64,000 nt of DNA from Acidobacteriota bacterium (GCA_019510095.1 JAEKLB010000020.1:12499-76498), one strand, 5' to 3'; counted from the stretch's first letter, positions 9,490 to 55,275 are shown. The notes: a model not told the origin generated them from the letters alone. A program made the numbers and translations.

Positions 9490-10536
9490 CTCAGTCCAGC
9501 CTGAGAACTACACCGAACCTCCGACGAGGGGTCGATACGTAAGCCGCCGTCCTGCAGCCTGGTCGATGACCTGACGCATGCGCTCCGTGTCTGAGTGCTT
9601 CTTGGTCGTGTAGCGGAAGTCGAACTCGGCCAGGTAGCGGTCAAGGTGCTTGCGGCTGACGTGATGGTGCGTCCCATCCAACGACCGCTTGAGCTGGCTG
9701 AAGAAGTTCTCTGCCTGGTTGCTGGTGACGTTGCCTCGCACGTACTCGCCTGAGCCGTGGTCCACCCATTCGTGCTGGATGAACTCGCGGCCCATGTGGC
9801 GGTACTGCATGCCTGCGTCCGTATGGAGGATCGAGCCGGCCAGATCGACCTGCTCTGAGATCACCTTGCGCAACGTCGCTCCGGTCACGTTGGCGACCAC
9901 GCGGGACCGAACCTCTCCTGTCCTGCGGTCCACCAGTGACAGGACCGGCTGAAGATGTGCCGTGCCGCCACCCTTGCGACGGTTGGAGCGCCTCCTGTCG
10001 GTCGTCCCTGCTGGTGCTTGTTCTTCGGCTTCCCGCCGATGAATGTTTCGTCAGCGACGACGATCCCACCGTTCCCGCCGAGCAGGTCCAGTGGGCTTGC
10101 CTTCATGGCCTCACGGATGCGGTGGAGCAGGAACCACGCGCTCTTGTTCGTCAGCCCGTAGCGGCGGAATACCTCAAACGCCGCGACCCGTTTTTGTTCG
10201 ACGCCATCTCGAAGATGACCATGATCCAGGTCCGAAGCGGGATCTTCGATCCGTGCATGACCGTGTCATTGAGGACCGAGAACGGCTTGCGGCACTCGGC
10301 GCACTTCCACAGACGCCGGTAGCTGGCCTTGCCGGTCGAAGTGGTCCGATGACCGTTCTTCGGGGTGAGGTAGTAGCTCCGCGCGTCGTTGCCGCAATGC
10401 GGGCAGACGGGCCGGCCGCTCCACCGAAGCTGCTCCATGAACTCCCACGCCGCCGCCTCGTCGGGAATCCGCTCCATGAGGCCGAGGGTCGTCATCCGCT
10501 CCACCCCCTCATTATGAAGAGCGGGTGTGACAGCTA
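9487..10536 (-). mobile_element. IS1595-family insertion sequence remnant (ends uncertain)
   Basis: Encloses the broken transposase. There is weak, gapped terminal similarity TAGCT(CA)GTC..CA.CC at both ends. An alternative outer pair is the perfect 10-bp inverted match GCTGTCACAC (9265-9274) / GTGTGACAGC (10525-10534). No clear target-site duplication. Confidence 0.4.
9508..10504 (-). pseudogene. IS1595-family (ISXO2-like DDE) transposase, disrupted by two frameshifts
   Basis: Three track ORFs in three frames tile one protein. The N-terminal zinc ribbon is CPHCGN...WKCAECRKPF (10151..10504). The middle part is YGLTNKSAWFLLHRIREAMK...ETFIGGKPKNKH (to 9885). The DDE C-terminus is PVLSLVDRRTGEVRS...HTDAGMQY...SNQAENFFSQLKR (9508..9933). 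Frame changes occur near 10195 (G-run) and near 10000. Confidence 0.8.
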
Positions 10537-10544
10537 AAGGCGAG

Positions 10545-10871
10545 TCAGGCGCTAACCGCTACGCGCTCTAGCTGGAAGTCGGCCTCGGGCTCAGGGGTCG
10601 GCTGCGACGACCTGCCACCGTTGGCAGCCATAGGCCGACCAAACGGCTGCATGAGGAATCTCAGGGTCCGCAGCGTGGTCGCATCGAGAAGATCGGTGAG
10701 ACCCGTGAAGTCCACATCGCGACCGGGCGACAGGACTTCGATCCCAACGACTTCACCGTTTGCGTCAACATCAACGATCAGTCCGCCCGGTGTCTCAACC
10801 TGGCGATCGATCGGAGCGGTGCGGACGTACGCGTAGAAGGCGTCGGCCTGGGTGTCGTACGTCCACCTCAT
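10545..10871 (-). CDS. DUF2283 family protein (putative antitoxin)
   Basis: MRWTYDTQADAFYAYV...VDVDANGEVVGIEVL is the DUF2283 pattern. There is a 4-nt ATGA overlap with the upstream DUF4258 gene. Confidence 0.8.
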   Translation of the reverse strand: MRWTYDTQADAFYAYVRTAPIDRQVETPGGLIVDVDANGEVVGIEVLSPGRDVDFTGLTDLLDATTLRTLRFLMQPFGRPMAANGGRSSQPTPEPEADFQLERVAVSA

Positions 10872-11095
10872 GTCTCGTCCTTCCAGAACGCAGAAATGAA
10901 CACGCCTAGGTCGGCAGCTGAGACTACGACCTTTAGGAGTTTGCCGTTCATCGCGTAACCCATTTTTACCATTGTGCCCGGCTTATTACCAGGTCGGAAC
11001 CCTCCGGTGGCCCGCGCGAGCGCCATCCGAACGTCCTCCTCGGTTATCCCACGTTCGGCCATCCGCTGACGGATGTGGTCCGTCCAGCCATCCAC
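10868..11095 (-). CDS. DUF4258 domain protein (putative toxin)
   Basis: 75 aa. WTDHIRQRMAERGITEEDV is the typical DUF4258 N-terminus. It is paired with DUF2283, as in predicted type II TA modules. Confidence 0.8.
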   Translation of the reverse strand: MDGWTDHIRQRMAERGITEEDVRMALARATGGFRPGNKPGTMVKMGYAMNGKLLKVVVSAADLGVFISAFWKDET

Positions 11096-11097
11096 TC

Positions 11098-11505
11098 CTA
11101 GACCGGCGGAAGCAGCGTCTGGACATGCAGGGGCAACCTCGCCAGTTCCTCGCCGTCTGTCGCCAGGATCACGGAGTAGACGCCAACGCGGCGGAAGTCG
11201 AGGTTCAGGGGCAGGACTACGTTGCTTCCCGGTGACGGCCCGGAGGGGTCGCTCGTGGGCAGCGGCGGCATAGCCCCGTCAAGACGCGCGATTTGCTCCC
11301 CGTCGGCGTGCTCAACGGAGACCCGAACAGTGTGGGCTACGCCTTCATCGTCAGGCTCCCACGCAACTCGGCCAACGAGAAAGATCGAAGCTCGGATCGG
11401 TAGCTCGGGAGCAGAGAGCCGAGAGACAAAGGCCCCAAGAACCGAAACCAGGCCGTTGTACTCCTTCGCCCCGTCAGCGAGGAACGCAGCTTCGATCCTG
11501 GGCAC
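11098..11505 (-). CDS. hypothetical protein (135 aa), first gene of the TA-like cassette
   Basis: GTG 11503-11505. Its stop is 2 nt before the DUF4258 start. The product looks beta-rich, and I cannot name a family with confidence. Confidence 0.55.
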   Translation of the reverse strand: MPRIEAAFLADGAKEYNGLVSVLGAFVSRLSAPELPIRASIFLVGRVAWEPDDEGVAHTVRVSVEHADGEQIARLDGAMPPLPTSDPSGPSPGSNVVLPLNLDFRRVGVYSVILATDGEELARLPLHVQTLLPPV

Positions 11506-12194: not shown

Positions 12195-13268
12195 ATGTAC
12201 GATTCGTGCATGTTGTCCGTTCTGGCCGAGGCGCTCGATGAGGTCGAGATTCCGGCGACGGCGCCCGGGCTGCGCGAGGCGTTCGCCATCCGGGATCGGT
12301 TCAACGCCAAGCTCGCTGCGGCCGTCGCCGAGTTCGATCGCGCTGGTGGGTGGGAGGCGGACGGTGCGGCGTCGGCGACCGGTTGGCTGCGGCATCACGC
12401 CTCGGTGTCCGGCAGGGAGGCACAATCGCTGACGCGGCGATCGCGTCGACTGACCCAGCTCCCGGTCCTTGCTCAAGCGTGGTCGTCGGGACAGGTGTCG
12501 GGCGGGCAGGTCGATGCCGTCGTCGCCCAGCTCAACGACCGCAACATCGACCTGTTCGCCTCCCAGGAGGCGGAACTGGTGCCCACCTTCATCGGGCTGT
12601 CGGTGGCCCAGACGGGCATCGCCATGCAGGCCTGGCGCCAGTACGCCGATGCCCTCGACCACAGCGACGAGCCCGAACAACCGCCGTCGCGCTTCGATGC
12701 CGCCCCCATCCTCGACGGCCGCACCGAGGTGTCGGGCTCCCTCGACACCCTCGACGGCGAGACGCTGCTGACCGCCCTCCGCGTGGCCCAGCGACCCGAT
12801 CTCGAAGGCGAGCCCGAACGCACGCCTGCCCAACGCCGAGCTGACGCGCTAGTCGACATCTGCCGCTTCTTCCTCGACCACCAGCACACGGTCCTCACCG
12901 ACCGCCGTCGACCGCACCTGAACATCACCATCGACATCACCGGGCTCGACAATGGCGAGGGAGCGTGCTGCCTCGATGGCGCACTGATCGCCCGATCCGA
13001 CCTCAAGCAGCTCCTGTGCGAGGCCAACCTCCACCGCGTGTTGGTCGACGGTCCGTCGGCCATCCTCGACTACGGCACCTCCCGCCGCCTGGTCTCGGTG
13101 GCGCAGTACAACGCCCTCGGCGTGCGCGACCGCGGCTGCCGCTTCCCGGGCTGCGACCGTCCTGCGCACTGGTGCGACGCCCACCACGTCGTGCCCTGGT
13201 GGCCCGACAAGGGTCCGACCCGGCTCGACAACCTCGTCCATCCCGAATGTGTCCCCTCCCCGGGGTGA
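12195..13268 (+). pseudogene. DUF222 / HNH endonuclease (REP13E12-type), 5' portion interrupted by element insertion
   Basis: DUF222-type N-terminal region, then GCRFPGCDRPAHWCDAHHVVPWWPDKGPTRLDNLV. After 13237 the frame runs into unrelated sequence (HPECVPSPG*). The missing C-terminus is found at 19046..19207. Confidence 0.85.
13230..13237. other. attL core (AACCTCGT)
   Basis: Identical 8-mer at 19046-19053. Lies exactly at the break in the HNH reading frame. Confidence 0.7.
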
Positions 13269-13320
13269 AACGCAGAACTACTCTCCCGGGACCTATTTGG
13301 AGGGAAGCGAGGGCGTGGCC

Positions 13321-15168
13321 ATGAGCGATGGGACAGCCGTGCCAATCCCTCCCGAGTTGCCTGGGCTGACGGCGTTTGAGAGTCGGGATGACCTTGCGGT
13401 TTACGGGAGCAACGCGTTGCTCCTCTTCGTCGCGCAGCTCAGGCTTGGGTTCGACGACGTGGACTCGTTCGCCGCGAACAGCCTGACCGATGGAAGCAAT
13501 GACAAGAAATGCGATCTCGTCGCGGTCACCGGTGACGGTCAGCGGATCGTGCTGGCACAGGGCTACATGGGCACGAAGGACGTTGCTGCAGCGCCCGCAA
13601 ACAAGGCCAGCGACCTCAACACCGGAGCAAGTTGGCTGCTAGCGGGCCCGCTTGAGTCCCTCCCCGAGACGCTTCGCGGAGCCGCCCAGGAAGTCCGAGA
13701 GGCGCTCGGTAGCGGAGAGGTTCGAGAACTGCAGCTCTGGTACGTGCACAACCTCCCTGAGTCAGTGAACGTCCAGTCGGAGTTGTTGCAAGCCGCAGCG
13801 ACGGCCGACAGCATCATCCGCCGAGACTTCCCGGACGCTGACGTGGATGTCTCGTTCGTTGAGATCGGACGTAGCACGCTTGAAGAGGAGTACGGGCGTA
13901 CTCAGGTGCCGATTCTCGTCGCCGAGAGCTTTGACTTCGAGGTTCCCGGAGGATTCGAACTGAAGGCCGGCGAGTGGAGCGCATTTTCAACGGCGGTCGC
14001 GGCCGGTGCGCTGCGTGACCTTTGGAAGGACCACAAGACGAAGCTCATGTCGCCGAATATCCGTGACTACTTGGGGGTCGTGCGGTCGAGCAGCAACATC
14101 AACTTCGGGATCAAGGAGACAGCGAAGGGGCAGCCTGAGAACTTCGCGATCTTCAATAACGGCATCACCGTCCTCGTGCACGACTACCGGCGAAGGTGGG
14201 AAGAGGGCGAGGGGGGCGAGCAGCGGGAGATTCTGACGGTCGAAGGGATTGGAATCGTCAATGGCGGCCAGACGACAGGCGCCCTCGGCAGCTTGGAGGA
14301 CAGCGAGGCTGTCGGGGCTGCCTCGGCCATGGTCATGGCCCGCTTTGTCAAGTGCTCGAACACCGCAGTTCTTGGAGACATCGTCCGTTACAACAACACC
14401 CAGAACAAGGTCGAGGCGACCGACTTCAGGAGCAAGGATCCCATCCAGGATCGACTGAGGACCGAGTTCGAGGTAGTACCCGACGCGGATTACCGCGGTG
14501 GCAGGAGAGGAGGAGCGAGCGACGCGATCCTTCGAATCAAGACACTCCTGCCGGATTCATCAGTCGCTCAGTCGCTCGCAGCATTCCATGGTGATCCGAA
14601 CCTCGCCTATAACGAGACGCGCAGCATCTGGGACAGCGATGCCGTGTACGCGAGGATTTTCCGGGAGAACGTCACGGCTCGGCACATCGTCTTCACGTAC
14701 AGCTTGCTAAAGGCGATTGAGAATGCGAAGCAAGTGAACTCAAAGATCGGTGTTGCGGACCGCACCGACGCCCAACGTCGTCATGCGCTGTTCTTCAGCG
14801 CACGAGGCTCGAACTACCTCCTCGTAGCGGCCCTCGGCGACTGCATCGAGACCGTTCTTGGCCGTGCCGCCGCCGATCGTTACGCACTGCAGTTCACAAA
14901 GAACATCTCACCGGCTGAGGCGCGGGAACTGTGGCAGCCAGTGGTGGACGTAGCACTCTCGTTCTCGGCGCAGCTCCAGCCAGCGACGGACCTTGGCTTG
15001 AAGGCACAGGATCGCGTGCGGAAGGCGCTCCAAGACTTCAGTTCAATGATGGAGGCCGTTCGGTCCGCGAACCCTGGTCCGTTCGATGCGTTGGCTGCTG
15101 CGACTGAGGCTCACCCGGCGTCAACACCAGCACCTAGTCCGCCATCGGGCGGGGTGCTCTTTACTTGA
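13321..15168 (+). CDS. AIPR (abortive infection phage resistance) family protein
   Basis: ATG 13321 with GAGGG 8 nt upstream. Family hallmarks are SNDKKCDL, SPNIRDYLG, FAIFNNGITV, IGIVNGGQTT and RYNNTQNKV. Confidence 0.85.
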   Translation: MSDGTAVPIPPELPGLTAFESRDDLAVYGSNALLLFVAQLRLGFDDVDSFAANSLTDGSNDKKCDLVAVTGDGQRIVLAQGYMGTKDVAAAPANKASDLNTGASWLLAGPLESLPETLRGAAQEVREALGSGEVRELQLWYVHNLPESVNVQSELLQAAATADSIIRRDFPDADVDVSFVEIGRSTLEEEYGRTQVPILVAESFDFEVPGGFELKAGEWSAFSTAVAAGALRDLWKDHKTKLMSPNIRDYLGVVRSSSNINFGIKETAKGQPENFAIFNNGITVLVHDYRRRWEEGEGGEQREILTVEGIGIVNGGQTTGALGSLEDSEAVGAASAMVMARFVKCSNTAVLGDIVRYNNTQNKVEATDFRSKDPIQDRLRTEFEVVPDADYRGGRRGGASDAILRIKTLLPDSSVAQSLAAFHGDPNLAYNETRSIWDSDAVYARIFRENVTARHIVFTYSLLKAIENAKQVNSKIGVADRTDAQRRHALFFSARGSNYLLVAALGDCIETVLGRAAADRYALQFTKNISPAEARELWQPVVDVALSFSAQLQPATDLGLKAQDRVRKALQDFSSMMEAVRSANPGPFDALAAATEAHPASTPAPSPPSGGVLFT

Positions 15169-15185
15169 AGTAGCAACGAAACTCG

Positions 15186-15224
15186 GAAGCGGGCCCTTGC
15201 GCTTCGAACCCGGTGAATCGGGTT
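15186..15224. terminator. two adjacent short hairpins between convergent AIPR and Cys-rich operon
   Basis: GAAGCG-ggcccttg-CGCTTC and AACCCG-gtgaat-CGGGTT. They sit between the two stop codons and have no U-tract. Confidence 0.35.
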
Positions 15225-15345
15225 AGTTCTTGTGCAGGTCGGGTCTCTGCACAGGAAGCTGGGAGCAGCAGCAGTCGGGGTGCTTGGCGCATGGGGTGAC
15301 GATGACGCCGTGATCGACCTCGCATCCGCAGTCGGCGCAGAGCAT
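15223..15345 (-). CDS. Cys-rich micro-protein C (40 aa; 7 Cys)
   Basis: MLCADCGCEVDHGVIVTPCAKHPDCCCSQLPVQRPDLHKN. Its ATG overlaps the stop of ORF B by 1 nt (TGATG). Confidence 0.45.
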   Translation of the reverse strand: MLCADCGCEVDHGVIVTPCAKHPDCCCSQLPVQRPDLHKN

Positions 15346-15572
15346 CAGGCCCACGTCGCGTTCGGGTCGAGTCGGCGCTTCTCGTCGGCGGTCATCTGGT
15401 CGTGTCCGAATGGGGCGACCCACCGGAACGTGGACAGCCCGGGCTTGCGGCACCAGCAGGAGTCCCGACAGCCGCACCGGACGGCGCCCATGCGCTCGAC
15501 GTACTTCCCGATGATGGCGAACACCAGGTAACCGGCCGCGGCTCGTCCGAGGAGGCGCTTCAGGGCTAGCAC
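15345..15572 (-). CDS. Cys-rich small protein B (75 aa; predicted TM helix then CGCRDSCWC)
   Basis: GTG 15570-15572, in the frame of track ORF 15345..15836. The start overlaps the stop of ORF A (GTGCTAG). Contains hydrophobic AAAGYLVFAIIG followed by VRCGCRDSCWCRKPG. Confidence 0.45.
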   Translation of the reverse strand: MLALKRLLGRAAAGYLVFAIIGKYVERMGAVRCGCRDSCWCRKPGLSTFRWVAPFGHDQMTADEKRRLDPNATWA

Positions 15573-15817
15573 CGGCTGAACCCGGCCCGGAAGCTGACCC
15601 GCCGCCAGAACGGCCAACCGGACGGGGCGGCTCGGGTCTGACGTTCGATCTGGCGCCTGCGCTTGGCGAGCACCTTCACGCACCGGAAGCAGACGCCTAC
15701 CTCGGGATGGTCCCCAAGGTGGAGCAGGCTTCCTCGGACGGTTCGGTCGCCACAGCACCAGCACCCGGAAGCGGCCGGCGGCTCCTGGTAGTCGCCTCCA
15801 AGGGCGGTCATCGCCAT
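15566..15817 (-). CDS. Cys-rich small protein A (83 aa; CWCC...HPEVGVCFRC zinc-ribbon-like)
   Basis: Track ORF with sequence SGCWCCGDRTVRGSLLHLGDHPEVGVCFRCVKVLAKRRRQ. Two Cys pairs spaced like a zinc ribbon are followed by a basic helix. Confidence 0.5.
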   Translation of the reverse strand: MAMTALGGDYQEPPAASGCWCCGDRTVRGSLLHLGDHPEVGVCFRCVKVLAKRRRQIERQTRAAPSGWPFWRRVSFRAGFSRC

Positions 15818-15882
15818 GTTGCGAGTCTCGCGCCACTGGCGAGACGGGGTCCGGCGGTGAGGCCGTACACCGAGGCGCTCGA

Positions 15883-16038
15883 CTAGGGCGCGGAGCGACC
15901 GCCCGCCGTTGCGGGCTCGGCAGAATCCCCGACGACTTGCCCGTCGAGCTCAGTGAGGAGCTCCCGAGACTGCTGGAGCAACTTCGCCGTACGGTCCGCG
16001 ATCTGGTTATTCAGGTCGTCGCGCTCGGGCCCGCTCAT
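15883..16038 (-). CDS. small protein (51 aa) with LLQQSRELLTELD motif
   Basis: Below the track cutoff. ATG 16036-16038 to TAG 15883-15885. First gene of the minus-strand operon of the element, and shares a motif with 7012..7170. Confidence 0.4.
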   Translation of the reverse strand: MSGPERDDLNNQIADRTAKLLQQSRELLTELDGQVVGDSAEPATAGGRSAP

Positions 16039-16103
16039 CGCGGGCCGTCGTACCCAAATCGCCTGAACCCGTATCAGTAGGGCGGACCAGGACCGTCAAG
16101 GCC

Positions 16104-16637
16104 ATGGCCGACCCCGAGCGGAGCGAGTGGGTTGACGGGCCGAAGCCTTGGTCGTCGTCACGATTGAGATGGCCTCGCCGCCAGGCGAGGCCTGCCAAGC
16201 CTCGGCCATCTGGAACTACACGCCTGTTGTTCTACTTGCAGGAACGCGAGTATCGTTCGGGCGTGGCGATCGACTTCCGTAGCGACCCGAGCCCGAGCCC
16301 CGAGGGCCGCGGCCGCGCTCGCCGTGCCTGGGACGCCTACGCCAAGGCCGTGAACTCGGTGACGCTGCCGGTCTTGGAGCCGGCGATCCGCCGTCTGGCG
16401 ACATCGATGTCAGTCGACATGGTCGGCTTCTGGGTGGCGTGGCATCTGCACGGCGGCTTCGAGGGCCTGGTCGAGTTGGGGATGCACCCGTCCACGGTCT
16501 GGCGCAAGGTCAAGCGCTTCCGGGTCGTGACCGGCCAGCACCCTGACGACTTCGAGTTGCCCGGCGTGAAGCTCGACCGGGAGGCGTATTGGAACTGGGC
16601 ACGGGAGTCGAACGGCACCTGGGTCAAGGTCCGCTGA
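16104..16637 (+). CDS. hypothetical protein with C-terminal HTH-like segment (start uncertain)
   Basis: Track ORF. GMHPSTVWRKVKRFRVV resembles a DNA-binding recognition helix. Sits immediately upstream of rep. Confidence 0.5.
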   Translation: MADPERSEWVDGPKPWSSSRLRWPRRQARPAKPRPSGTTRLLFYLQEREYRSGVAIDFRSDPSPSPEGRGRARRAWDAYAKAVNSVTLPVLEPAIRRLATSMSVDMVGFWVAWHLHGGFEGLVELGMHPSTVWRKVKRFRVVTGQHPDDFELPGVKLDREAYWNWARESNGTWVKVR

Positions 16638-16643
16638 CGTGTC

Positions 16644-17447
16644 ATGGCCGTCACCGCCTCCGCCGACCCCGACACCCCTACTCGCATTTCAGCGAGTGAG
16701 CGCCCATCGCGGTCGGAGGGTGCCGTCGTCGGGTGGGTTCTCTCGGTTTGCGTCCTCGCCCTGGAAGCCGGCGGCTCCTTCCGGTACGCGGTGCGGAAGC
16801 CGCCGATCCGCGGGGGCCCCACAGCCGATCCCGAGCGGGCCGCAATGGAGGCAGCGCGCCGAGCCCGAGGAAAGGTCCGTCGCTACTGCGCCGCCAACCG
16901 ACTGAACCGCCTCGGCACGCTGACCTACCGGGGCGAGGGATGCCACGACCCGCGGGTCCTTCGTGCAGACGTCGCCGCCTTCTTTCGCTCACTGCGGGCG
17001 CTGCTTGATAGTGGCCCGTTCCCGTACCTCTGGACAGCGGAATGGCACAAGACAGGCCACGGTCTCCACGTCCACTTCGCGGTCGGGCGCTACATCCAAC
17101 GCTCCCTGATCGAACAGGCATGGGACCGAGGCTTCGTCCACATCAAGCTCCTAGGCGACCTGCCCGTCGGCTCCGGTCCCGTCGAAGAAGCGCGACGCGC
17201 TGCGGGCTATCTGTCGAAGTACGTCGGCAAAGCCTTCGACAACGACCGCGTTCCCGGCCTTCATCGCTACGAGGTCGCCCAACGATTCCAACCCGAGATC
17301 GTCCAAGTCTGGGGGCGCACCCGAGAAGCCGTCATCGACCAGGCGAACGAACTCGTCGGCAACCGCACACCCGAACAGGTCTGGACCTCCGACCAAGTCA
17401 CCGACTGGCAAGGACCACCCGCCGTCTGGGTCCGGTGGCCAGGATGA
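16644..17447 (+). CDS. rep: rolling-circle replication initiator (HUH endonuclease Rep; start uncertain)
   Basis: Shows the three RCR motifs in order: LGTLTYRG (motif 1), GLHVHFAV (HUH, motif 2) and AAGYLSKYVGK (catalytic Tyr, motif 3). Confidence 0.8.
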   Translation: MAVTASADPDTPTRISASERPSRSEGAVVGWVLSVCVLALEAGGSFRYAVRKPPIRGGPTADPERAAMEAARRARGKVRRYCAANRLNRLGTLTYRGEGCHDPRVLRADVAAFFRSLRALLDSGPFPYLWTAEWHKTGHGLHVHFAVGRYIQRSLIEQAWDRGFVHIKLLGDLPVGSGPVEEARRAAGYLSKYVGKAFDNDRVPGLHRYEVAQRFQPEIVQVWGRTREAVIDQANELVGNRTPEQVWTSDQVTDWQGPPAVWVRWPG

Positions 17448-17683
17448 CCGCCGACGAACTTGCCGTCTGGGTTACCGCCTCCTGCGAACGTCAAGGCATC
17501 CCCGTCAAGATCACCGACCGCCGCGTGATCACCGAAGTCGCCGCGCTGCTGACCGATGGCACCGTGCGGGCCCCGACCCGTGGCGAAGCCGGGTCGGGCC
17601 GCACACCTCGAACAACTACACCCGCCACACCAGCTCAACCCGAGCAGGATCAAACTCGCGTGCTCCCGAAGCGCCGGCGCTGA
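17444..17683 (+). CDS. small protein (79 aa) translationally coupled to rep
   Basis: ATGA overlap with the rep stop. The N-terminus MTADELAVWVTASCERQGIPVKITDRRVITEVAALL looks protein-like. The 3' end overlaps the convergent integrase by 68 nt, so the C-terminus is uncertain. Confidence 0.4.
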   Translation: MTADELAVWVTASCERQGIPVKITDRRVITEVAALLTDGTVRAPTRGEAGSGRTPRTTTPATPAQPEQDQTRVLPKRRR

Positions 17684-19019
17684 TCACTGCACGGTCGAGC
17701 ACAGCCCGCACGATCGCGTGCTGACGGGTCAGGTTCAGGGAACCCCACTGATCACGCAGCCCGTCGCCATTGCCAGGCAGCCCGACGAGCGTGTCAGTCC
17801 GAGTGACACGAGCCAGTCGCCCTTGGGTGTCACGCATCCGCTCCTCAACCGAGCGCCGTGCCGTCAGCCACTCAGCGCGGGTGATCTCCTTTGCCGCCCA
17901 CATGCCCGCCAGCTCGTCCAACTGCCCACGATCAGCCGACAACGACTCCGACAGCGCAGCCACCGCCTCGTCAGCAGCGCCCCGACCCGCAAGCGTGTCG
18001 GCAAGCTCCGGCGTATCGAGCCGATACAGCACCGCGGCGGCGACGAACTCCTCGAGCGGGCCCGCCACTACCGTCAGCCTCCCGCAACCTCCATGGTCCG
18101 GTCCCGACGAGCACACGTAGCGGCGAGTCGTCGCCCGAGCCGACGAATAGAGAACACCGCCGCACTTGCCGCACCGCAACAGACCGGTCAACAGATACCG
18201 ACGAGGCGCACGCCGGCCCGATGTCTTCTTGGCCTCCATCACCGCGAGAACCCGCTCCCGATCAGCAGGAGTGACGATCGGCTCCCAAACCGCGGGGCCG
18301 ACAACCTCGCCACGATGCGTCCGGAGGCCCGCGATCCGCCCCGAGCACAACAAGTCCCGCAGCGTCGGCGTCCGCCAGGGCCCGCCCTTGACCGTCCGCA
18401 CACTCTCGGCGTCCAACCACGTCGCCAGCGACCGCAAGCTCTCGCCGGCCAAGAACCGAGCCACCAACTGACGGATCACTTCGGCTTCGTCCGCCTTGAC
18501 CGTCACCTTGTCGGCCTCGTAGCCAAAGGGCCGCTGGCTCCCACCATGGGGCCGTCCCTCCGCTGCCACCTGATCCAGTTTGCGGCGCACCCGGCGACTC
18601 TTCGACGCCGACTCGTTCGCAGCCACCGCGGACAGCATGCGCAACACCAACAGCCCGTCACCATTCGCCACGTCCACGTCGCCGCCCGCCACGAACCGAA
18701 CATGACGGACCTTGGCATCCGTGACGACTTCCACGAACCGCTCTAGCTCGATCGGCCGACGAGTCAAGCGGTCAACGTGGTACACGACCACCGCGTCCCT
18801 CAGTCCGCTCCGCAGGTCCTCCAGCATCTCCTCATAGCGAGGACGACGCTTGCCCGAGAACGCTGACACGTCGTTGTCGACGTACTCCTCAGCCACCTCC
18901 CAGCCCAACTCCCGAGCCAGCCGTCGACAGTCCTCCAACTGCCGCAACACCCCGAGGGAAGTGCCCTCCTGGTCCGACGAAATACGGGCGTACACAGCAG
19001 CAGAGCGGGCGATCGCCAT
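17616..19019 (-). CDS. int: large serine recombinase (integrase)
   Basis: N-terminal resolvase catalytic domain (AAVYARISSDQEG..., VVVYHVDRLTRR), a recombinase domain, and a Cys-rich zinc ribbon (LLRCGKCGG...YVCSSGPDHGGCG). 467 aa. Confidence 0.9.
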   Translation of the reverse strand: MAIARSAAVYARISSDQEGTSLGVLRQLEDCRRLARELGWEVAEEYVDNDVSAFSGKRRPRYEEMLEDLRSGLRDAVVVYHVDRLTRRPIELERFVEVVTDAKVRHVRFVAGGDVDVANGDGLLVLRMLSAVAANESASKSRRVRRKLDQVAAEGRPHGGSQRPFGYEADKVTVKADEAEVIRQLVARFLAGESLRSLATWLDAESVRTVKGGPWRTPTLRDLLCSGRIAGLRTHRGEVVGPAVWEPIVTPADRERVLAVMEAKKTSGRRAPRRYLLTGLLRCGKCGGVLYSSARATTRRYVCSSGPDHGGCGRLTVVAGPLEEFVAAAVLYRLDTPELADTLAGRGAADEAVAALSESLSADRGQLDELAGMWAAKEITRAEWLTARRSVEERMRDTQGRLARVTRTDTLVGLPGNGDGLRDQWGSLNLTRQHAIVRAVLDRAVISAGASGAREFDPARVELVWRV

Positions 19020-19045
19020 AGAGGGCAGATTAACAAAGGACGGTG

Positions 19046-19053
19046 AACCTCGT
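19046..19053. other. attR core (AACCTCGT)
   Basis: Identical to 13230-13237. The flanking attP-side sequence contains the inverted pentamers GGACG(8 nt)CGTCC when the element ends are joined. Confidence 0.7.
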
Positions 19054-19207
19054 GCTGCTCTGCCGTCGTCACCACCGCCTGCTCCATCGAGACGGTTGGA
19101 GCCACAAGCTCCTGCCCGACACGCAACTGGTGGTCACCACGCCCGATGGTCGGGTCCTCCGCAGCATGCCGCCCGGACGACCACCACCTGCGCTTCCGCT
19201 GGAGTAG
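19046..19207 (+). pseudogene. DUF222/HNH endonuclease, displaced 3' portion
   Basis: Hand translation gives NLVLLCRRHHRLLHRDGWSHKLLPDTQLVVTTPDGRVLRSMPPGRPPPALPLE*. This is the HNH C-terminal LLCxxHHxxxH motif that 12195..13237 lacks. Confidence 0.8.
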
Positions 19208-19254: not shown

Positions 19255-20121
19255 CTACTCGGGGGTCTGGCTCCCGCCTTGCTCCAACCACTGGTTGAAG
19301 ACGGGCGGGCGCTTCTCGAAGAACGCCTTGGAGCCGTCGTGGGCGTCGTCGTGGAAGTCGCTCAAGGCGGTCTTGGTGGCGATGTCATCGCCGGCCTGGT
19401 CGAAGGTGAGGTGAGCGGCGTTGTACACCGCCTTCTTGAGCAGGCGCATGGCGACCTGCGGGCCGGCGGCCAGCTCCCGGGCCAGCTCCATGGTGCGCTC
19501 CATCAGCAACTCGTCGTCGACCGAGTCGTTGACCAGGCCGAGCTCGGCGGCCTCGTCGCCCGTGACGATCCGCTTGCGGAGCAGGAAGTCGAGCGCCCGC
19601 TTCACGCCGAGATGCTCGACGAGGAGCCAGTGCCCGCCTTCGTCGGGCTGCCAACCCATGCGCAGGGTGGCGCTGCCGAGCTGGGCCGAGCGAGCAGCGA
19701 TGGCGAAGTCGCACGCCAGCACCACGGACAGGCCGAGCTGGATGGCAGCGCCATTGACCGCGGCGATGGTGATCTTGTCGAGGCGACGAATGACTCGTGC
19801 CGGGTCCTGCGCATAGGTGGCCAGCCGGGCGTAGAGGTTGACCGGCACCTTGCTGAAGCCCTCAGGAAGATCAGAGACGAGGGTCGGCGGCTCCGGCTCG
19901 GCGGACTTGTTGTTGACACCGGCAATGAAGCCTCGACCCGTCCCGGTGAGCACGACGACTCGCACGGCGTCGTCGAACTGGGCGAGGGTCAGCACCTCGC
20001 ACAGGTCGCGACGCGCACCGAAGCTCATGGCGTTGAGCCGCTCGGGGCGGTTGAAGGTGATGATGGCGATCCCGTCGCCGTCGACGGTCGCGTCGAATCC
20101 CTGGTAGCTGCCCTCGATCAC
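19255..20121 (-). CDS. enoyl-CoA hydratase/isomerase (crotonase) family protein
   Basis: GTG 20119-20121 overlaps the upstream stop (GTGA). The crotonase fold pattern is ITFNRPERLNA...VVVLTGTGRGFIAG...AAVNGAAIQLG. Paralogue of 48971..49759. Confidence 0.9.
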   Translation of the reverse strand: MIEGSYQGFDATVDGDGIAIITFNRPERLNAMSFGARRDLCEVLTLAQFDDAVRVVVLTGTGRGFIAGVNNKSAEPEPPTLVSDLPEGFSKVPVNLYARLATYAQDPARVIRRLDKITIAAVNGAAIQLGLSVVLACDFAIAARSAQLGSATLRMGWQPDEGGHWLLVEHLGVKRALDFLLRKRIVTGDEAAELGLVNDSVDDELLMERTMELARELAAGPQVAMRLLKKAVYNAAHLTFDQAGDDIATKTALSDFHDDAHDGSKAFFEKRPPVFNQWLEQGGSQTPE

Positions 20122-20930
20122 GCCTGCTTGCCCTTCTGCAAGGCCCCACTGAGTCGACCGGGTCGCGGCGGGCCGGAGTTGAGAGCCGAGTTGGCGATCC
20201 GTTCGATGTGCCGGCTCTTCTCCCGGTCCTCTGCGGTGCACAGGTCGATCGTCAGCTTGGCCATGCCCAGCGCGTCGGCATCGAGGGCAACCAGGCTGCG
20301 GGCGAACTCGTAGACCCGGTCCATGAACTCCTCGGCCGGATAGACCTCGTGCACCAGGCCGATGCGCAGCGCGGTGTCGGCGTCGATGTTGCGGCCGGCC
20401 ATGCCGATCCACTTCGACCAGTGGGGCCCCACGAGCCGGGTCAGCCGGCTGATCCCGCCGCTGCCAGCGATGACACCGAGGTTCGGCACCTCGGGGAGCC
20501 CGTAGGTGGTGTGCGGCGCGCAGAAGCGGAAGTCGCACGACACACCCATCTCCAGCCCGAGGCCGAGGCAGGGCCCTTGCGCGGCATGGATGATCGGCTT
20601 CTCGATCTTCTCGAACTCGTCGTGCAGCTCGTGGTGGCGCTGCCGGTACTTGCGCCGCTGCAACGTCTTGGTCGGCTGCGGGCCCTCGAAGTCGCGCCGC
20701 TCGGCCTGGGCCTCGTCGCTGATGTCGAGCCCGGCCGTGAAGTAGCGCCCGTTGGCGGTGAGCACCATCACCCGGAGCTCCTCGGTGTCGCCGAAGCGCC
20801 AGGTCGCCTCGTCGAGCGCCTGGCTCATCGGCAGGTTGATGGCATTGAGCTTCTTTGGCCGGTTGAGGGTGACGGTCATGATCCCGTCCTCCTCGGCCAC
20901 CAACACTGGTGCGTCGGGCTGCTCTGCCAT
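20118..20930 (-). CDS. enoyl-CoA hydratase/isomerase family protein
   Basis: ATG 20928-20930 (MAEQPDAPV...). Contains VTLNRPKKLNA...VMVLTANGRYFTAGLD...IIHAAQGPCLGLGLE. The rest of track ORF 20118..21566 is over-extension. Confidence 0.85.
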   Translation of the reverse strand: MAEQPDAPVLVAEEDGIMTVTLNRPKKLNAINLPMSQALDEATWRFGDTEELRVMVLTANGRYFTAGLDISDEAQAERRDFEGPQPTKTLQRRKYRQRHHELHDEFEKIEKPIIHAAQGPCLGLGLEMGVSCDFRFCAPHTTYGLPEVPNLGVIAGSGGISRLTRLVGPHWSKWIGMAGRNIDADTALRIGLVHEVYPAEEFMDRVYEFARSLVALDADALGMAKLTIDLCTAEDREKSRHIERIANSALNSGPPRPGRLSGALQKGKQA

Positions 20931-20954
20931 GGGCCGGACGCTACCGTCGCCGCT

Positions 20955-21674
20955 GTGAGCGATGACGAGGGGCTCTACTTCCGCCAGCTGCTGTCGGGCC
21001 GCGACTTCGCGGTCGGCGACGGCGCCGCGACGCAGATGGTCAACTTCGTCTACCTGATCGGCGATCGCGCCACGGGCGAGGCCGTCGTGGTCGATCCCGC
21101 CTACGCGGTGCGGGAGCTGGTCGAGATCGCCGGCGCCGATGGGATGCGCATCACCGGCGCCCTCGCCACCCACCACCACCCCGACCACGTGGGCGGGTCG
21201 ATGATGGGCGTCACCCTCGAGGGCGTGGCCGAGCTGCTCGGCCTCGGCCTGGGGCCGGTGCACGTCCAGCGGGACGAGGCTCCCTTCGTCCAACGGGTCA
21301 CCGGGGCCGAAGCCAGCGATCTGGTCTCCCACGACAGTGGCGACGTGGTCGAGGTCGGCTCGGTGACGATCGAGCTCCTGCACACGCCCGGCCACACGCC
21401 CGGCAGCCAGTGCTTCCTGGTCGACGGGTTGCTGGTGTCGGGCGACACCCTGTTCCTCGAGGGGTGTGGGCGCACTGACTTCCCGGGCAGCGACCCTGCT
21501 GCCATGTACGACAGCCTGCAGCGCCTGGCAGCGTTGCCGGCGGCGACGGTGGTCTTCCCCGGCCACCGGTACTCGATGCCGTCGTTCGGGAGCCTCGAGG
21601 CCATCAAGGAGTCGAACTACGTGTACCGGCCCGGCACCAAGGAGCAGTGGCTCGCCATGTTCGGTGGGGCCTGA
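20955..21674 (+). CDS. MBL-fold metallo-hydrolase (glyoxalase II-like)
   Basis: GTG 20955. Has the metal motif ATHHHPDHVGG, plus HTPGHTPGS and the C-terminal GHRY. Confidence 0.85.
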   Translation: MSDDEGLYFRQLLSGRDFAVGDGAATQMVNFVYLIGDRATGEAVVVDPAYAVRELVEIAGADGMRITGALATHHHPDHVGGSMMGVTLEGVAELLGLGLGPVHVQRDEAPFVQRVTGAEASDLVSHDSGDVVEVGSVTIELLHTPGHTPGSQCFLVDGLLVSGDTLFLEGCGRTDFPGSDPAAMYDSLQRLAALPAATVVFPGHRYSMPSFGSLEAIKESNYVYRPGTKEQWLAMFGGA

Positions 21675-55073: not shown

Positions 55074-55201
55074 GGACCGCGACCGTGAGTCCGACTCCGA
55101 TGTCCTCCCGCGGTGACGCTCCATAGCCCCTATTGGCTCCCCACTCACGTTCCGACGCTCACGTGAGACAAGCAATGAGGCTCTGAGCAGGAGTTCTCGG
55201 G

Positions 55202-55275
55202 TGGGCCGTACAGGACTTGAACCTGTGACCCCTTGCGTGTCATGCAAGTGCTCTACCAAGCTGAGCTAACGGCCC
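55202..55275 (-). tRNA. tRNA-Val (GAC)
   Basis: Reverse-strand cloverleaf: acceptor gggccgt/acggccc, D arm gctc/gagc, anticodon arm cttgc-atGACac-gcaag, T arm acagg-ttcaagt-cctgt. Confidence 0.9.

Follow-up and report, generated by a model that had tools for sequence, protein, structure and literature searches.

phiRv1 of Mycobacterium tuberculosis encodes the integrase Rv1586c and the recombination directionality factor (RDF) Rv1584c, and its integrase reportedly uses attB sites inside REP13E12. Classic AICEs (pSAM2, SLP1, and pMEA300) are 9 to 24 kb long, rely on tyrosine integrases acting at tRNA genes, and carry FtsK-like Tra and spread genes. IS607-like serine transposons are characterised by low target specificity and by a small serine recombinase that bears an N-terminal HTH. 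REP13E12 corresponds to DUF222/HNH (PMC10589994; bioRxiv 10.1101/2024.10.15.618387). phiRv1 itself is PICI-like, with a capsid, prohead protease, terminase, primase, and small basic Xis (PMC12268328), and it has a 12-bp core, GGTTGGCCGTGG (PMC3986857). Defence genes are carried by satellites and hotspots, including P4-like elements, PICI, and PLE (Rousset et al. 2022, PMC9122126), of which PLE uses a large serine recombinase (PMC6002521).

Here, we describe a locus within a 64-kb stretch of DNA (64,000 nucleotides, termed the window) in which a DUF222-HNH gene is interrupted by a 5,816-bp insertion at 13238..19053. The insertion, its exact boundaries, and its domain content are direct observations. 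In our judgment it is probably an integrated small mobile element, placed by its integrase through recombination of attP with an HNH attB, equipped with its own Rep, and acting as a defence-gene shuttle that exploits a multi-copy target. The features of the locus are as follows.

12195..13237, + strand: N-terminal part of the DUF222-HNH gene (translation; Pfam; alignment to intact homologues)
13208..13257, + strand: attL (junction mapping and family attP dyad; outer limits inferred from the ~52-bp dyad)
13230..13231, + strand, right copy at 19046-19047: predicted crossover dinucleotide AA (sequence comparison)
13321..15168, + strand: AIPR-family (AbiU/Abi-alpha-like) protein of 615 aa, putatively anti-phage, the cargo (Pfam, PHROG, PADLOC)
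15207..15224, + strand: terminator-like hairpin downstream of the AIPR gene (consensus scan only)
15566..15817, − strand: 83-aa ORF with CxxC...CxxC (gene call on Logan contigs L001 and L002; high GC3)
15883..16038, − strand: 51-aa ORF (gene call on Logan contigs)
16104..16637, + strand: 177-aa backbone protein (13 related loci encode a homologue in this place, upstream of Rep)
16644..17447, + strand: HUH rolling-circle replication initiator (Rep), 267 aa (motifs HGLHVHFAV and YLSKYVGK; Pfam, PHROG)
17444..17683, + strand: 79-aa protein with a basic C-terminus, overlapping the 3' end of the convergent int gene
17616..19019, − strand: large serine integrase, 467 aa (Pfam, family alignment, structural homologue)
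19020..19068, + strand: attR, in which the element P arm and the host B' arm flank the core AACCTCGT (19046-19053)
19046..19207, + strand: C-terminal fragment of the HNH gene (translation; alignment to C-termini of intact homologues)

As in phiRv1, a large serine integrase is paired with an attB located within a REP13E12 (DUF222/HNH) repeat ORF, which bears out the target logic suggested by the sequence-only reading of this DNA; the integrase gene likewise lies at the end of the element beside a partial REP13E12 gene, and the sites are small and dyad symmetric. The phiRv1 core contains GGTT, the complement of the AACC found at the junction in the window family, but the cores otherwise differ. 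phiRv1 also differs in length (~9 to 10 kb versus 5.8 kb here and 3.1 to 6.2 kb in the family), in content (structural genes versus an HUH Rep and a defence gene), and in its mycobacterial host, the host here being no mycobacterium and having its closest relatives in Acidimicrobiia. None of the phiRv1-type PICI-like genes (capsid, prohead protease, terminase, and primase) was found in any insert ORF with Pfam or PHROG. The same reading had called the cargo unlike that of phiRv1, and rightly so, given the AIPR/AbiU gene and the HUH Rep.

AICEs resemble the insert in being integrated plasmid-like elements of Actinomycetota with an integrase, an optional Xis, a rolling-circle Rep, and replication after excision. 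In contrast to them, the element here has a large serine integrase, a protein-coding target, and a Rep that belongs to the REP_ORF2-G2P type instead of RepSA. It also lacks a transfer gene: in the Pfam and PHROG searches, the called ORFs yielded only the AIPR protein, Rep, and integrase, with no FtsK/SpoIIIE-like Tra or spread gene, and the element is too small for a ~2-kb tra gene. Phage satellites are likewise small and integrative, their conserved backbone being joined by a single variable slot that holds diverse anti-phage systems, and PLE shares the large serine recombinase. However, the window family is not known to have a helper phage or genes for packaging or capsid hijacking, it is absent from viral contig collections, and Pfam and PHROG revealed no helper-exploitation genes (capsid, terminase small subunit, packaging redirection, or primase-helicase) in the insert. 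In SPbeta/SprA in spsM, skin/SpoIVCA, and fdxN/XisF, too, a large serine recombinase element splits a gene that precise excision restores; these are single-locus domesticated developmental switches, whereas the element here belongs to a spreading family with a replication gene, exchangeable cargo, and a multi-copy selfish target.

The interrupted DUF222-HNH gene

The left half of the gene covers codons 1 to 347 and two bases of codon 348, ending ...GPTRLDNLV; its frame from 12195 reads ...CDAHHVVPWWPDKGPTRLDNLV and then HPECVPSPG*, with the stop at 13268. On the right, the frame 19046..19207 reads NLVLLCRRHHRLLHRDGWSHKLL...PLE*, the translation of the fragment being NLVLLCRRHHRLLH...PLE*. Although this frame was earlier said to be missing from the ORF listing, it is listed there as 19043..19207 with a GTG start. 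Splicing 12195..13237 to 19054..19207 gives 1,197 nt in frame, i.e., 398 codons plus a stop. Pfam assigns residues 27 to 312 of the spliced protein to DUF222 (2.8e-21) and residues 315 to 360 to HNH_2/HNH, which spans the junction at 346 to 348. The protein aligns end to end with intact homologues of ~400 aa without a gap at the junction, the closest being P0002 (393 aa, 82% identity, E ~1e-217), which reads ...TRLDNLVLLCRRHHHLLH... across that position. The initial reading of a serine-integrase element inside a DUF222/HNH (REP13E12-type) gene, with both gene halves undamaged, is upheld by the in-frame splice, the gap-free alignment, and the Pfam assignment of the integrase. It would have failed had intact members naturally ended at ...NLVHPECVPSPG; instead, intact homologues continue past the junction, and the HPECVPSPG ending was seen only in P0001, the same interrupted allele in a second MAG.

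The 8-bp sequence AACCTCGT, proposed as the att core, occurs in the 64-kb window only at 13230-13237 and 19046-19053, both strands considered. Since ~2 copies of any 8-mer are expected by chance in 64 kb, the count alone carries little weight, and it is the placement of the two copies that matters. The repeat does mark the core, with the refinement that the 8 bp are merely the stretch of identity between attP and attB. The GC content of the insert is 65.4%, versus 69 to 70% in the flanks, and neither a second DUF222 copy nor a second integrase was found in the window. The Logan assemblies SRR9952755 and SRR9952756, which are independent, both contain the same attR junction, and the element proteins are present in two NCBI MAG contigs; thus, the insertion is not an artefact. 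Ends of Logan contigs fall at ~19081 and ~19102, near attR, and at ~15336 and ~15601, before the AIPR gene. These ends could reflect mixed populations or variable cargo, and low coverage explains them equally well.

Gene content of the insert

The integrase gene, anticipated as a 467-aa large serine recombinase beside the right junction, was confirmed there, with its ATG 26 nt from the core. Its product matches Resolvase (3.3e-28), Recombinase (1.5e-10), and Zn_ribbon_recom (1.1e-10) in Pfam, residues 9 to 404 align to a 500-aa integrase with solved structures, and the motif Y10-A11-R12-I13-S14 is invariant in 21 homologues; the architecture is that of a large serine integrase. An IS607-like serine transposon was considered and rejected, given a score of 34 bits against a cut-off of 110 for that model, the large serine integrase architecture, and the strict site specificity of the family. 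The Rep contains HVH and YLSKY and matches the curated family REP_ORF2-G2P (PF23343, 5.9e-15, 55.8 bits versus a cut-off of 27.8), which together meet the definition applied to an HUH Rep; it also matches PHROG 3419, rolling-circle initiation (1.6e-20).

The 615-aa protein meets the threshold for the AIPR/AbiU family, with matches to Pfam AIPR (PF10592, 2.1e-29, 103.6 bits versus a cut-off of 25), PHROG 1841 (Abi alpha-like, 1.3e-117), and PADLOC AbiU (7.4e-23); a defence activity is inferred from these family matches. Its gene has an alternative GTG start at 13249 and a lower GC content, about 0.60 to 0.62. As an MzaE equivalog the protein was rejected (63.8 bits versus 1,050). The 177-aa, 79-aa, 83-aa, and 51-aa ORFs had no match across Pfam, PHROGs, PADLOC, NCBIfam, and PDB, where the Pfam and PHROG scans took called ORFs and the two small ORFs were covered in PHROGs only. 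No directionality factor, transfer, mobilisation, or packaging gene was recognisable in the insert. The N-terminal ~35 residues of the 79-aa protein are conserved, with unchanged position, at 48 of the 80 related loci; a role for this protein as a recombination directionality factor or accessory protein is no more than a guess. A search for internal repeats revealed no array resembling iterons or clt, the only matches being weak and present in two copies.

The integrase family and its att sites

The integrase has 2,306 homologues, the best 120 at 65 to 78% identity, and related integrases were placed at 80 genomic loci. At 63 of the 77 assessable loci, the integrase start directly adjoins an HNH half (55 in the window orientation and 8 flipped), compared to 12 of 1,342 random control positions (0.9%). 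Both halves are present at 30 loci, with element lengths of 3,144 to 6,184 bp, and at each of these the N-terminal half ends and the C-terminal half starts at the Asn codon; the 8 loci in the opposite orientation use the same AA. Syntenic Rep homologues accompany the integrase at 62 of the 80 loci. The backbone of int, the 79-aa gene, and Rep is conserved, whereas the cargo on the attL side varies, consisting mostly of anti-phage genes. This cargo has lower GC3 and matches TIR, ThsA-Macro, retron-type RT, HEC-01, AbiLi/PDC-M38, STAND NTPases, PIN_8, and AIPR, and many proteins in the slot have no family match. Across the family, one and the same codon is used while the defence cargo varies, and the window element belongs to a large, apparently undescribed group of defence-carrying Actinomycetota elements of 3 to 6 kb. 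When the M. shimoidei relative (L065), itself a degraded insertion with a RepSA fragment, served as the query, only a tight mycobacterial subfamily was recovered, 79 to 100% identical to it, with none named phiRv1; one member (P0320) lies on a ParAB/ESX plasmid-like contig and not within an HNH gene.

In the window, attL consists of a host B arm, the core, and an element P' arm ending in CCCC at +23 to +26, while the P arm of attR begins directly after the int start codon. Joining the element ends produces an imperfect dyad, symmetric at 15 of 25 positions, with its centre between the A's of AAC. The inverted GGACG/CGTCC noted earlier in the joined ends is real and forms part of this longer dyad. 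The dyad centre has this placement in 20 of 30 elements, the window element included, and the symmetric positions conserved in the family are ±11, ±16, and ±23 to 26. At the 30 loci with both halves, the core shared by attL and attR always starts at or includes AAC, and the identity shrinks to AA alone in L019, L020, L022, and the flipped L024; cores vary naturally in the family, e.g., AACCTC versus AACGGC. AA makes up positions one and two of AAC, the Asn codon of the HNH catalytic motif, and crossover at this dinucleotide is most likely, an inference from these comparisons for which there is no biochemical evidence. At the sequence level only, with cleavage inferred, the sites have the hallmarks of large serine integrase att sites, namely a short dyad, a central dinucleotide, and no loss of target. 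TAATCT at 19027-19032 within attR, on the int strand and 7 nt before the int ATG, is possibly the −10 box of a leaderless int mRNA, an inference drawn solely from a conserved TAnTnT 7 nt before the ATG; a strict sigma-70 scan found no promoters in the element.

Origin of the insert and its significance

For the mobile element that we favor, the following course can be proposed. The large serine integrase would have recombined a ~52-bp dyad-symmetric attP, represented by the joined element ends, with an attB in the DUF222-HNH gene, namely the DNA for the conserved ...GGPT..LDN|L.LLC..HH... HNH core, with strand exchange predicted at the AA of the Asn codon. An excised circle would then be replicated by the element's own HUH rolling-circle Rep, and the attL-adjacent slot, here holding an AIPR/AbiU-type abortive-infection gene, would make the element a small shuttle for phage defence. 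As a target, the DUF222-HNH gene exists in multiple copies and is probably selfish and dispensable; its HNH motif is conserved throughout Actinomycetota, which may provide many safe landing sites in many hosts. Precise excision would restore the gene, since it was split without loss of sequence. The earlier view that the insertion is recent and possibly reversible remains an inference, as do current mobility, excision, and the route of cell-to-cell transfer.

The alternative that survives best, though we consider it unlikely, is a fixed, domesticated remnant: a single integration, no longer excised or transferred, and kept only for a useful AIPR gene. It accords with the lack of a recognised directionality factor or transfer gene and with the searches for other forms of the locus. 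The suggested check for an empty site and a circular junction found neither for this exact locus: no empty-site allele of the window gene was closer than the 82% of P0002, which like P0001 has no DNA on record, and a degenerate attB/attP/attL/attR scan of JGI metagenomes returned no element copy and no attP (circular) junction. The reconstituted 26-bp attB did occur uninterrupted in intact DUF222-HNH genes (metagenomes, JGI degenerate scan). IMG/VR viral contigs held no element relative above 38% identity, the integrase reached at best 35.5% identity in sequenced phages, and the Rep had no match among PLSDB plasmids; given these absences, a free replicating or packaged form has never been recorded. 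However, int and Rep are full-length, as are the two target-gene halves, their coding GC3 is normal, and the attP arms retain the family dyad. Moreover, two elements with different cargo occupy different HNH copies in related genomes (L027/L028 and L029/L040), and the cargo of a distant Labedella element (L051) is an AIPR copy with 67% identity to that of the window, above the 57% of its integrase. These last two observations imply ongoing turnover in the family.

We give very little credence to a regulatory gene-interrupting element of the XisF/fdxN, skin/SpoIVCA, or SPbeta/spsM type, whose programmed excision would turn the HNH gene on. Excision would indeed restore the ORF exactly, and XisF is the closest NCBIfam match of the integrase, albeit far under the cut-off (90.6 versus 375 bits). 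Such a switch would nonetheless have to account for a replication initiator of its own, exchangeable defence cargo, and an integrase family that occupies many different HNH paralogues, lies in either orientation, and in some genomes occurs twice; furthermore, DUF222-HNH genes are multi-copy repeats (REP13E12) and not developmental genes (PMC10589994). Equally improbable is an origin by decay from a phiRv1-like prophage or a PICI-type satellite, with the genes for capsid, protease, terminase, and primase gone. The target gene family and integrase class are those of phiRv1, which is PICI-like (PMC10654092; PMC12268328), but a compact set of int, the 79-aa gene, and Rep plus 1 to 3 kb of cargo recurs at 62 loci in several orders, no structural-gene remnants were seen, and the IMG/VR result offers no closer viral relative. 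The recurrent compact architecture and the lack of structural remnants point to a distinct element type and not to independent decay. Coincidence or an assembly chimera, for which only the chance expectation of the 8-bp repeat speaks, is refuted by the in-frame, gap-free splice, the independent assemblies, and the recurrence of the architecture at 63 loci against 0.9% in controls.

Beyond this locus, we tentatively suggest, being closer to undecided than convinced, that such elements form a class, not recognised before, of minimal (3 to 6 kb) integrative rolling-circle replicons, widespread in Actinomycetota and present in Dormibacterota MAGs as well. The HNH Asn codon may be their near-universal landing pad, used by co-evolved integrases in either orientation through an AA/TT flip, and each may carry one exchangeable anti-phage system, so that together they would form a phylum-wide shuttle parasitising selfish DUF222-HNH genes. 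The case of phiRv1 and REP13E12 would be widened from mycobacteria to a general strategy, that of targeting a multi-copy selfish nuclease gene at its most conserved codons, and the HNH target codons would be a harmless landing site in many hosts. The family constitutes a natural library of thousands of related large serine integrases whose attP and attB can be read from genomes; through its core variation and orientation flips, the evolution of site specificity and orientation in serine integrases can be tested directly, and actinobacterial engineering gains a source of new orthogonal integrases. Because the attL-side slot is enriched for known defence families, yet many of its cargo proteins are unmatched, it could guide the search for new anti-phage genes in poorly studied soil Actinomycetota.

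The interrupted DUF222-HNH gene and its insert

The octamer AACCTCGT occurs at 13230-13237 and at 19046-19053, with no other copy on either strand of the whole window. Because any 8-mer is expected about twice per 64 kb by chance, the count itself is uninformative, and the weight rests on the placement of the two repeats at a protein-level break. The DUF222-type frame that opens at 12195 runs to ...CDAHHVVPWWPDKGPTRLDNLV, after which come nine codons of unrelated sequence and, at 13268, a stop. From 19046, the second frame reads NLVLLCRRHHRLLHRDGWSHKLL...PLE*. Removal of one repeat copy together with the 5,808 bp between the copies yields an ORF of 1,197 nt (398 codons), in whose product Pfam places DUF222 at residues 27-312 and HNH/HNH_2 at residues 315-360, the HNH match crossing the junction at N346-L347-V348. 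Rebuilt in silico, the attB junction (the restored host site) is GGCTCGACAACCTCGTGCTGCTCTGCC and the attP junction (the joined element ends) is AAAGGACGGTGAACCTCGTCCATCCCGAATG.

The spliced protein has 6,075 homologues, and the intact ones of ~400 aa read ...LDNL(V/T)L.C.RHHHLLH..., the same as the splice; the nearest of them (P0002, 82% identity) reads ...TRLDNLVLLCRRHHHLLH. The ending HPECVPSPG is found in a single one of the 6,075 proteins, P0001, the identical interrupted allele from a second MAG. The sequence-only reading had proposed that an insert flanked by 8-bp repeats splits this gene, a claim that would have fallen had intact family members ended at the break or had the frame at 19046 been unlike HNH C-termini. 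Since intact homologues continue as the splice does and HPECVPSPG is confined to the interrupted allele, and with the 19046 frame matching the HNH C-terminus, neither is the case: the finding is real and that interpretation is right. An assembly chimera is excluded, because the right junction (attR) is also present in two independent Logan assemblies and the element proteins occur on two NCBI MAG contigs of 84.8 kb and 12.5 kb.

The insert (13238..19053, 5,816 bp) has a GC content of 65.4%, compared to 69-70% in its flanks, and the GC of its AIPR gene is only ~0.60-0.62. A stretch of 26 nt separates the integrase start codon from the core.

Features of the insert
13321-15168, +, 615-aa AIPR-family protein (Pfam 2.1e-29; PHROG 'Abi alpha-like' 1.3e-117; PADLOC AbiU 7.4e-23)
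15207-15224, +, terminator-like hairpin
15566-15817, -, 83-aa ORF, function unknown
15883-16038, -, 51-aa ORF, function unknown
16104-16637, +, 177-aa protein, function unknown
16644-17447, +, 267-aa HUH rolling-circle Rep (PF23343; PHROG 3419; HVH and YLSKY motifs)
17444-17683, +, 79-aa protein overlapping the 3' end of the integrase gene
17616-19019, -, 467-aa large serine integrase (Resolvase, Recombinase, Zn ribbon; Ser14 invariant)

Genes for a capsid, terminase, primase, FtsK-like Tra or relaxase were not found in the insert. In the deposited MAG annotations, Rep and the 177-aa protein are given shorter starts (200 aa and 124-157 aa, respectively).

Landing site and predicted crossover point across the integrase family

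Database searches returned 2,306 homologues of the integrase, the best 120 of which are ~467 aa long and 65-78% identical to it. With one genome taken per species, a scan yielded 80 loci; these span Acidimicrobiia, Frankiales, Micrococcales (Arthrobacter, Microbacterium, Cryobacterium, Sinomonas), Propionibacteriales (Nocardioides), Mycobacteriales, and Dormibacterota MAGs. At 55 of the 77 assessable loci, an HNH C-terminal half lies just upstream of the integrase start on the opposite strand and begins at its Asn codon, mostly 25-29 nt from the ATG (range 13-38). At 8 further loci, the HNH half next to the integrase is the N-terminal one (...EIDH...GGPT..L.N) and shares its strand, and the remaining 14, which were negative, mostly hold the most divergent integrases (46-55% identity). 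As a control for this test, random positions were drawn from the same loci, and 12 of 1,342 were positive. Both HNH halves are present in 30 loci, the N-half ending at the Asn codon 3.1-6.2 kb off; in tblastn with the spliced window protein, N-half matches end at query residues 346-348 and C-half matches begin at 343-346. Intact DUF222-HNH genes with an overall identity of just 30-54% contain the same 26-bp reconstituted attB, letter for letter. Our data show that a large-serine-integrase element inserted precisely at the HNH Asn codon, in a sequence-conservative manner.

The identity between the left junction (attL) and attR extends over 3-14 bp and always includes the Asn codon, as AACCTCG.. 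or AACGGC... At three loci (L019, L020, and L022), the third base of this codon differs between attL and attR, as does the base preceding the codon, with AA alone shared, and the junctions of a complete flipped element of ~4.3 kb (L024) have just AA in common. As independent evidence, element ends joined in silico form an imperfect palindrome, and for 20 of the 30 elements its center separates the two A's. For the element in the window, 15 of 25 positions are symmetric at the AA center, compared to 11 at the next-best center. Family-wide, symmetric conservation is seen at ±11 (A/T), ±16 (T/A), and ±23 to ±26 (GGGG/CCCC). This layout fits what is expected of a ~52-bp serine-integrase attP with AA as its predicted central dinucleotide, no cleavage having been mapped. 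As AA is non-palindromic, it would fix insertion orientation. At flipped loci, the upstream junction reads ...AA, after which the same P-arm sequence follows, which is what a flip of the attP central dinucleotide would produce. The inverted GGACG/CGTCC pair that had been read as flanking the core forms the innermost part of this longer dyad; the 8-bp 'core' itself is a real repeat at both junctions but marks merely the extent of attP/attB identity in these two sites.

Two mycobacterial observations stand apart. An integrase 82% identical to the M. shimoidei protein (P0320) is encoded on two Logan contigs (L125/L126, SRR9437259 / SRR9437256) that are plasmid-like, with ParA/ParB and ESX genes (EccD, EspG, mycosin), and has no adjoining HNH gene; this subclade may therefore have another role or target. 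The Mycobacterium shimoidei locus (L065, 15-3939) is a flipped insertion with the DUF222 N-half directly upstream of the integrase gene; downstream, its only features are the C-terminal piece of a pSAM2-type RepSA and an ORF like that of the 79-aa protein, beyond which come genes of host type and a DDE transposase. In appearance, the locus is a decayed element whose Rep is of another type.

Backbone, cargo, and genomic surroundings

Of the 80 loci, 62 have a Rep homologue (42-72% identity) with position and orientation kept, 48 conserve the N-terminal portion of the 79-aa protein, and 13 have the 177-aa protein. The region from Rep to attL is unconserved, with a GC3 below that of the backbone. 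A scan of 31 cargo proteins, each of at least 200 aa, gave the following families.

Cargo by locus
Window and L051: AIPR
L027: TIR
L011: nucleoside deoxyribosyltransferase-like and AAA
L018 and L053: STAND / AAA_16 NTPases
L031: HEC-01 (AAA_21 and DUF4276)
L041: retron-type reverse transcriptase (type VII)
L042: AbiLi / PDC-M38 ATPase and DUF3226
L045: ThsA Macro (Thoeris)
L047: PIN_8
L028: DUF6414

In about a dozen loci, the cargo matched no Pfam or PADLOC family. These unmatched proteins of 350-550 aa occupy the same slot (e.g., L004, L010, L019, L035, L040, L055, L061, and L064, among L003-L082) and are candidates for new anti-phage genes; those of L010, L061, and L064 are visibly alike in architecture, with an Ala/Gly-rich hydrophobic C-terminal tail.

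The AIPR protein of Labedella phragmitis (L051), a locus without the 177-aa gene, is 67% identical to that of the window over 597 aa, whereas the integrases share only ~57% identity, which suggests cargo exchange between diverged backbones. Two family members per genome were found in Sinomonas humi (L027/L028), Pengzhenrongella phosphoraccumulans (L029/L040), the Dormibacteraeota chromosome OY970355 (L030/L034), and a Frankiaceae MAG (L005/L009). In the first two genomes, with both junctions mapped, the members occupy different HNH genes and carry different cargo (TIR versus DUF6414 in S. humi). Family members are present in cultured hosts, among them Sinomonas humi MUSC 117, Pengzhenrongella phosphoraccumulans M0-14, Aquihabitans sp. 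G128, and Arthrobacter sp. Soil763. Approximately two-thirds of first cargo genes are co-directional with the interrupted host gene, from which we infer that read-through from the host-gene promoter is possible.

The DNA around the insert is chromosomal, with two enoyl-CoA hydratases, rpoD, and dnaG downstream. Directly upstream of the DUF222 gene lies a small accessory patch of lower GC (9508-11505, 0.59-0.66), so that the target gene was already in a variable region.

Features of the accessory patch
9508-9933, -, IS1595/ISXO2-like transposase fragment
10545-10871, -, DUF2283 gene
11098-11505, -, DUF6941 gene

The window holds no second DUF222 gene or second integrase and, besides tRNAs, no Rfam family at gathering score. 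The tRNAs are a tandem tRNA-Asn(GTT) and tRNA-Met(CAT) near the left end (1275-1478) and tRNA-Val(GAC) at 55200-55275 (-). The HNH C-terminal fragment is bordered on its right by the two adjacent enoyl-CoA hydratase/isomerase genes (19255-21566, -). Taken as longest ORFs (19255-20538 and 20118-21566), these genes overlap by ~400 bp, and the true start of at least one is therefore probably further downstream.

Near-identical element proteins (MBW8780375/6 and MBW8824843/4) come from two MAGs with conflicting labels, 'Verrucomicrobia bacterium' (JF599) and 'Acidobacteria bacterium' (JF603). Actinomycetota (Acidimicrobiia-like) is the origin indicated by the window's GC and DUF222 gene and by all close homologues, and the bins are probably mislabelled or contaminated. 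Both Logan contigs carrying the element (L001, SRR9952756; L002, SRR9952755) end 30-50 bp past attR, within the HNH C-terminal fragment (window ~19081 and ~19102), and their other ends fall before the AIPR gene (window equivalents ~15336 and ~15601). Branching of the assembly graph could account for these ends, be it at occupied versus empty sites, at paralogous HNH genes, or at alternative cargo, but so could low coverage alone.

Proposed mechanism and relation to phiRv1

We infer with high confidence that the integrase would catalyze attP × attB recombination with a 2-nt stagger at AA. With moderate confidence, a circle, once excised, would be replicated by the HUH Rep; current excision at the window locus is without evidence. 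Held with equal, moderate confidence are the inferences that the HNH core may have been selected as a target, being the most conserved DNA of a multi-copy, dispensable, and probably selfish gene family, and that the cargo gene may guard the host from phage and thereby pay for the element. The 79-aa protein is perhaps a directionality factor, given its small size, basic C-terminus, conservation, and position beside the integrase gene; this remains speculative and unproven. The directionality factors of phiRv1 and TP901-1 are small and basic (PMC1470463). Speculatively, the conserved TAnTnT (TAATCT, 19027-19032), 7 nt before the ATG, might be the −10 box of a leaderless integrase mRNA; if so, integrase binding at the P arm would be autorepressive, and integration would alter the sequence upstream of the −10 box. 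The route of transfer is unknown; speculatively, the element could be mobilized through a resident conjugative element or packaged in the particles of a helper phage.

Bibb and Hatfull are said to have reported in 2002 that the phiRv1 serine integrase uses attB sites within REP13E12 repeats. The sequence-only reading drew this parallel in target logic, with different cargo, and both points hold: the insert sits in a DUF222/HNH gene, the family to which REP13E12 corresponds (PMC10589994; bioRxiv 10.1101/2024.10.15.618387), and phiRv1 is a PICI-like element of ~10 kb with capsid, protease, terminase, and primase genes (PMC10654092; PMC12268328), whereas the present elements lack all four. The likeness concerns target logic, an attB within a REP13E12-type gene; integrase orthology and crossover codon were not compared. 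The phiRv1 core is GGTTGGCCGTGG, and an element of Mycobacterium sp. MCS carries, terminally or close to its ends, a 'phiRv1 integrase' together with genes for HNH endonucleases (PMC3986857).

Assignment to a recognized satellite type was rejected, as was an AICE: Tra is absent, the integrase is of the serine and not the tyrosine type, and the target codes for protein. No relatives were found among sequenced phages (identity at most 35.5%), IMG/VR contigs (at most 38%), or PLSDB plasmids. Elements of 3-6 kb combining a serine integrase and rolling-circle Rep in HNH genes are undescribed in the full-text literature searched, the coverage of which was incomplete, so that a prior description is possible.

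Taken alone, the window element is a new member of a group that follows phiRv1-style 'integrate into REP13E12' logic. What seems worth follow-up is the picture at family level: a minimal Rep-integrase backbone with a single exchangeable defense slot, and a landing site pinned to the Asn codon of the HNH motif in different orders of Actinomycetota, with insertion in both orientations.
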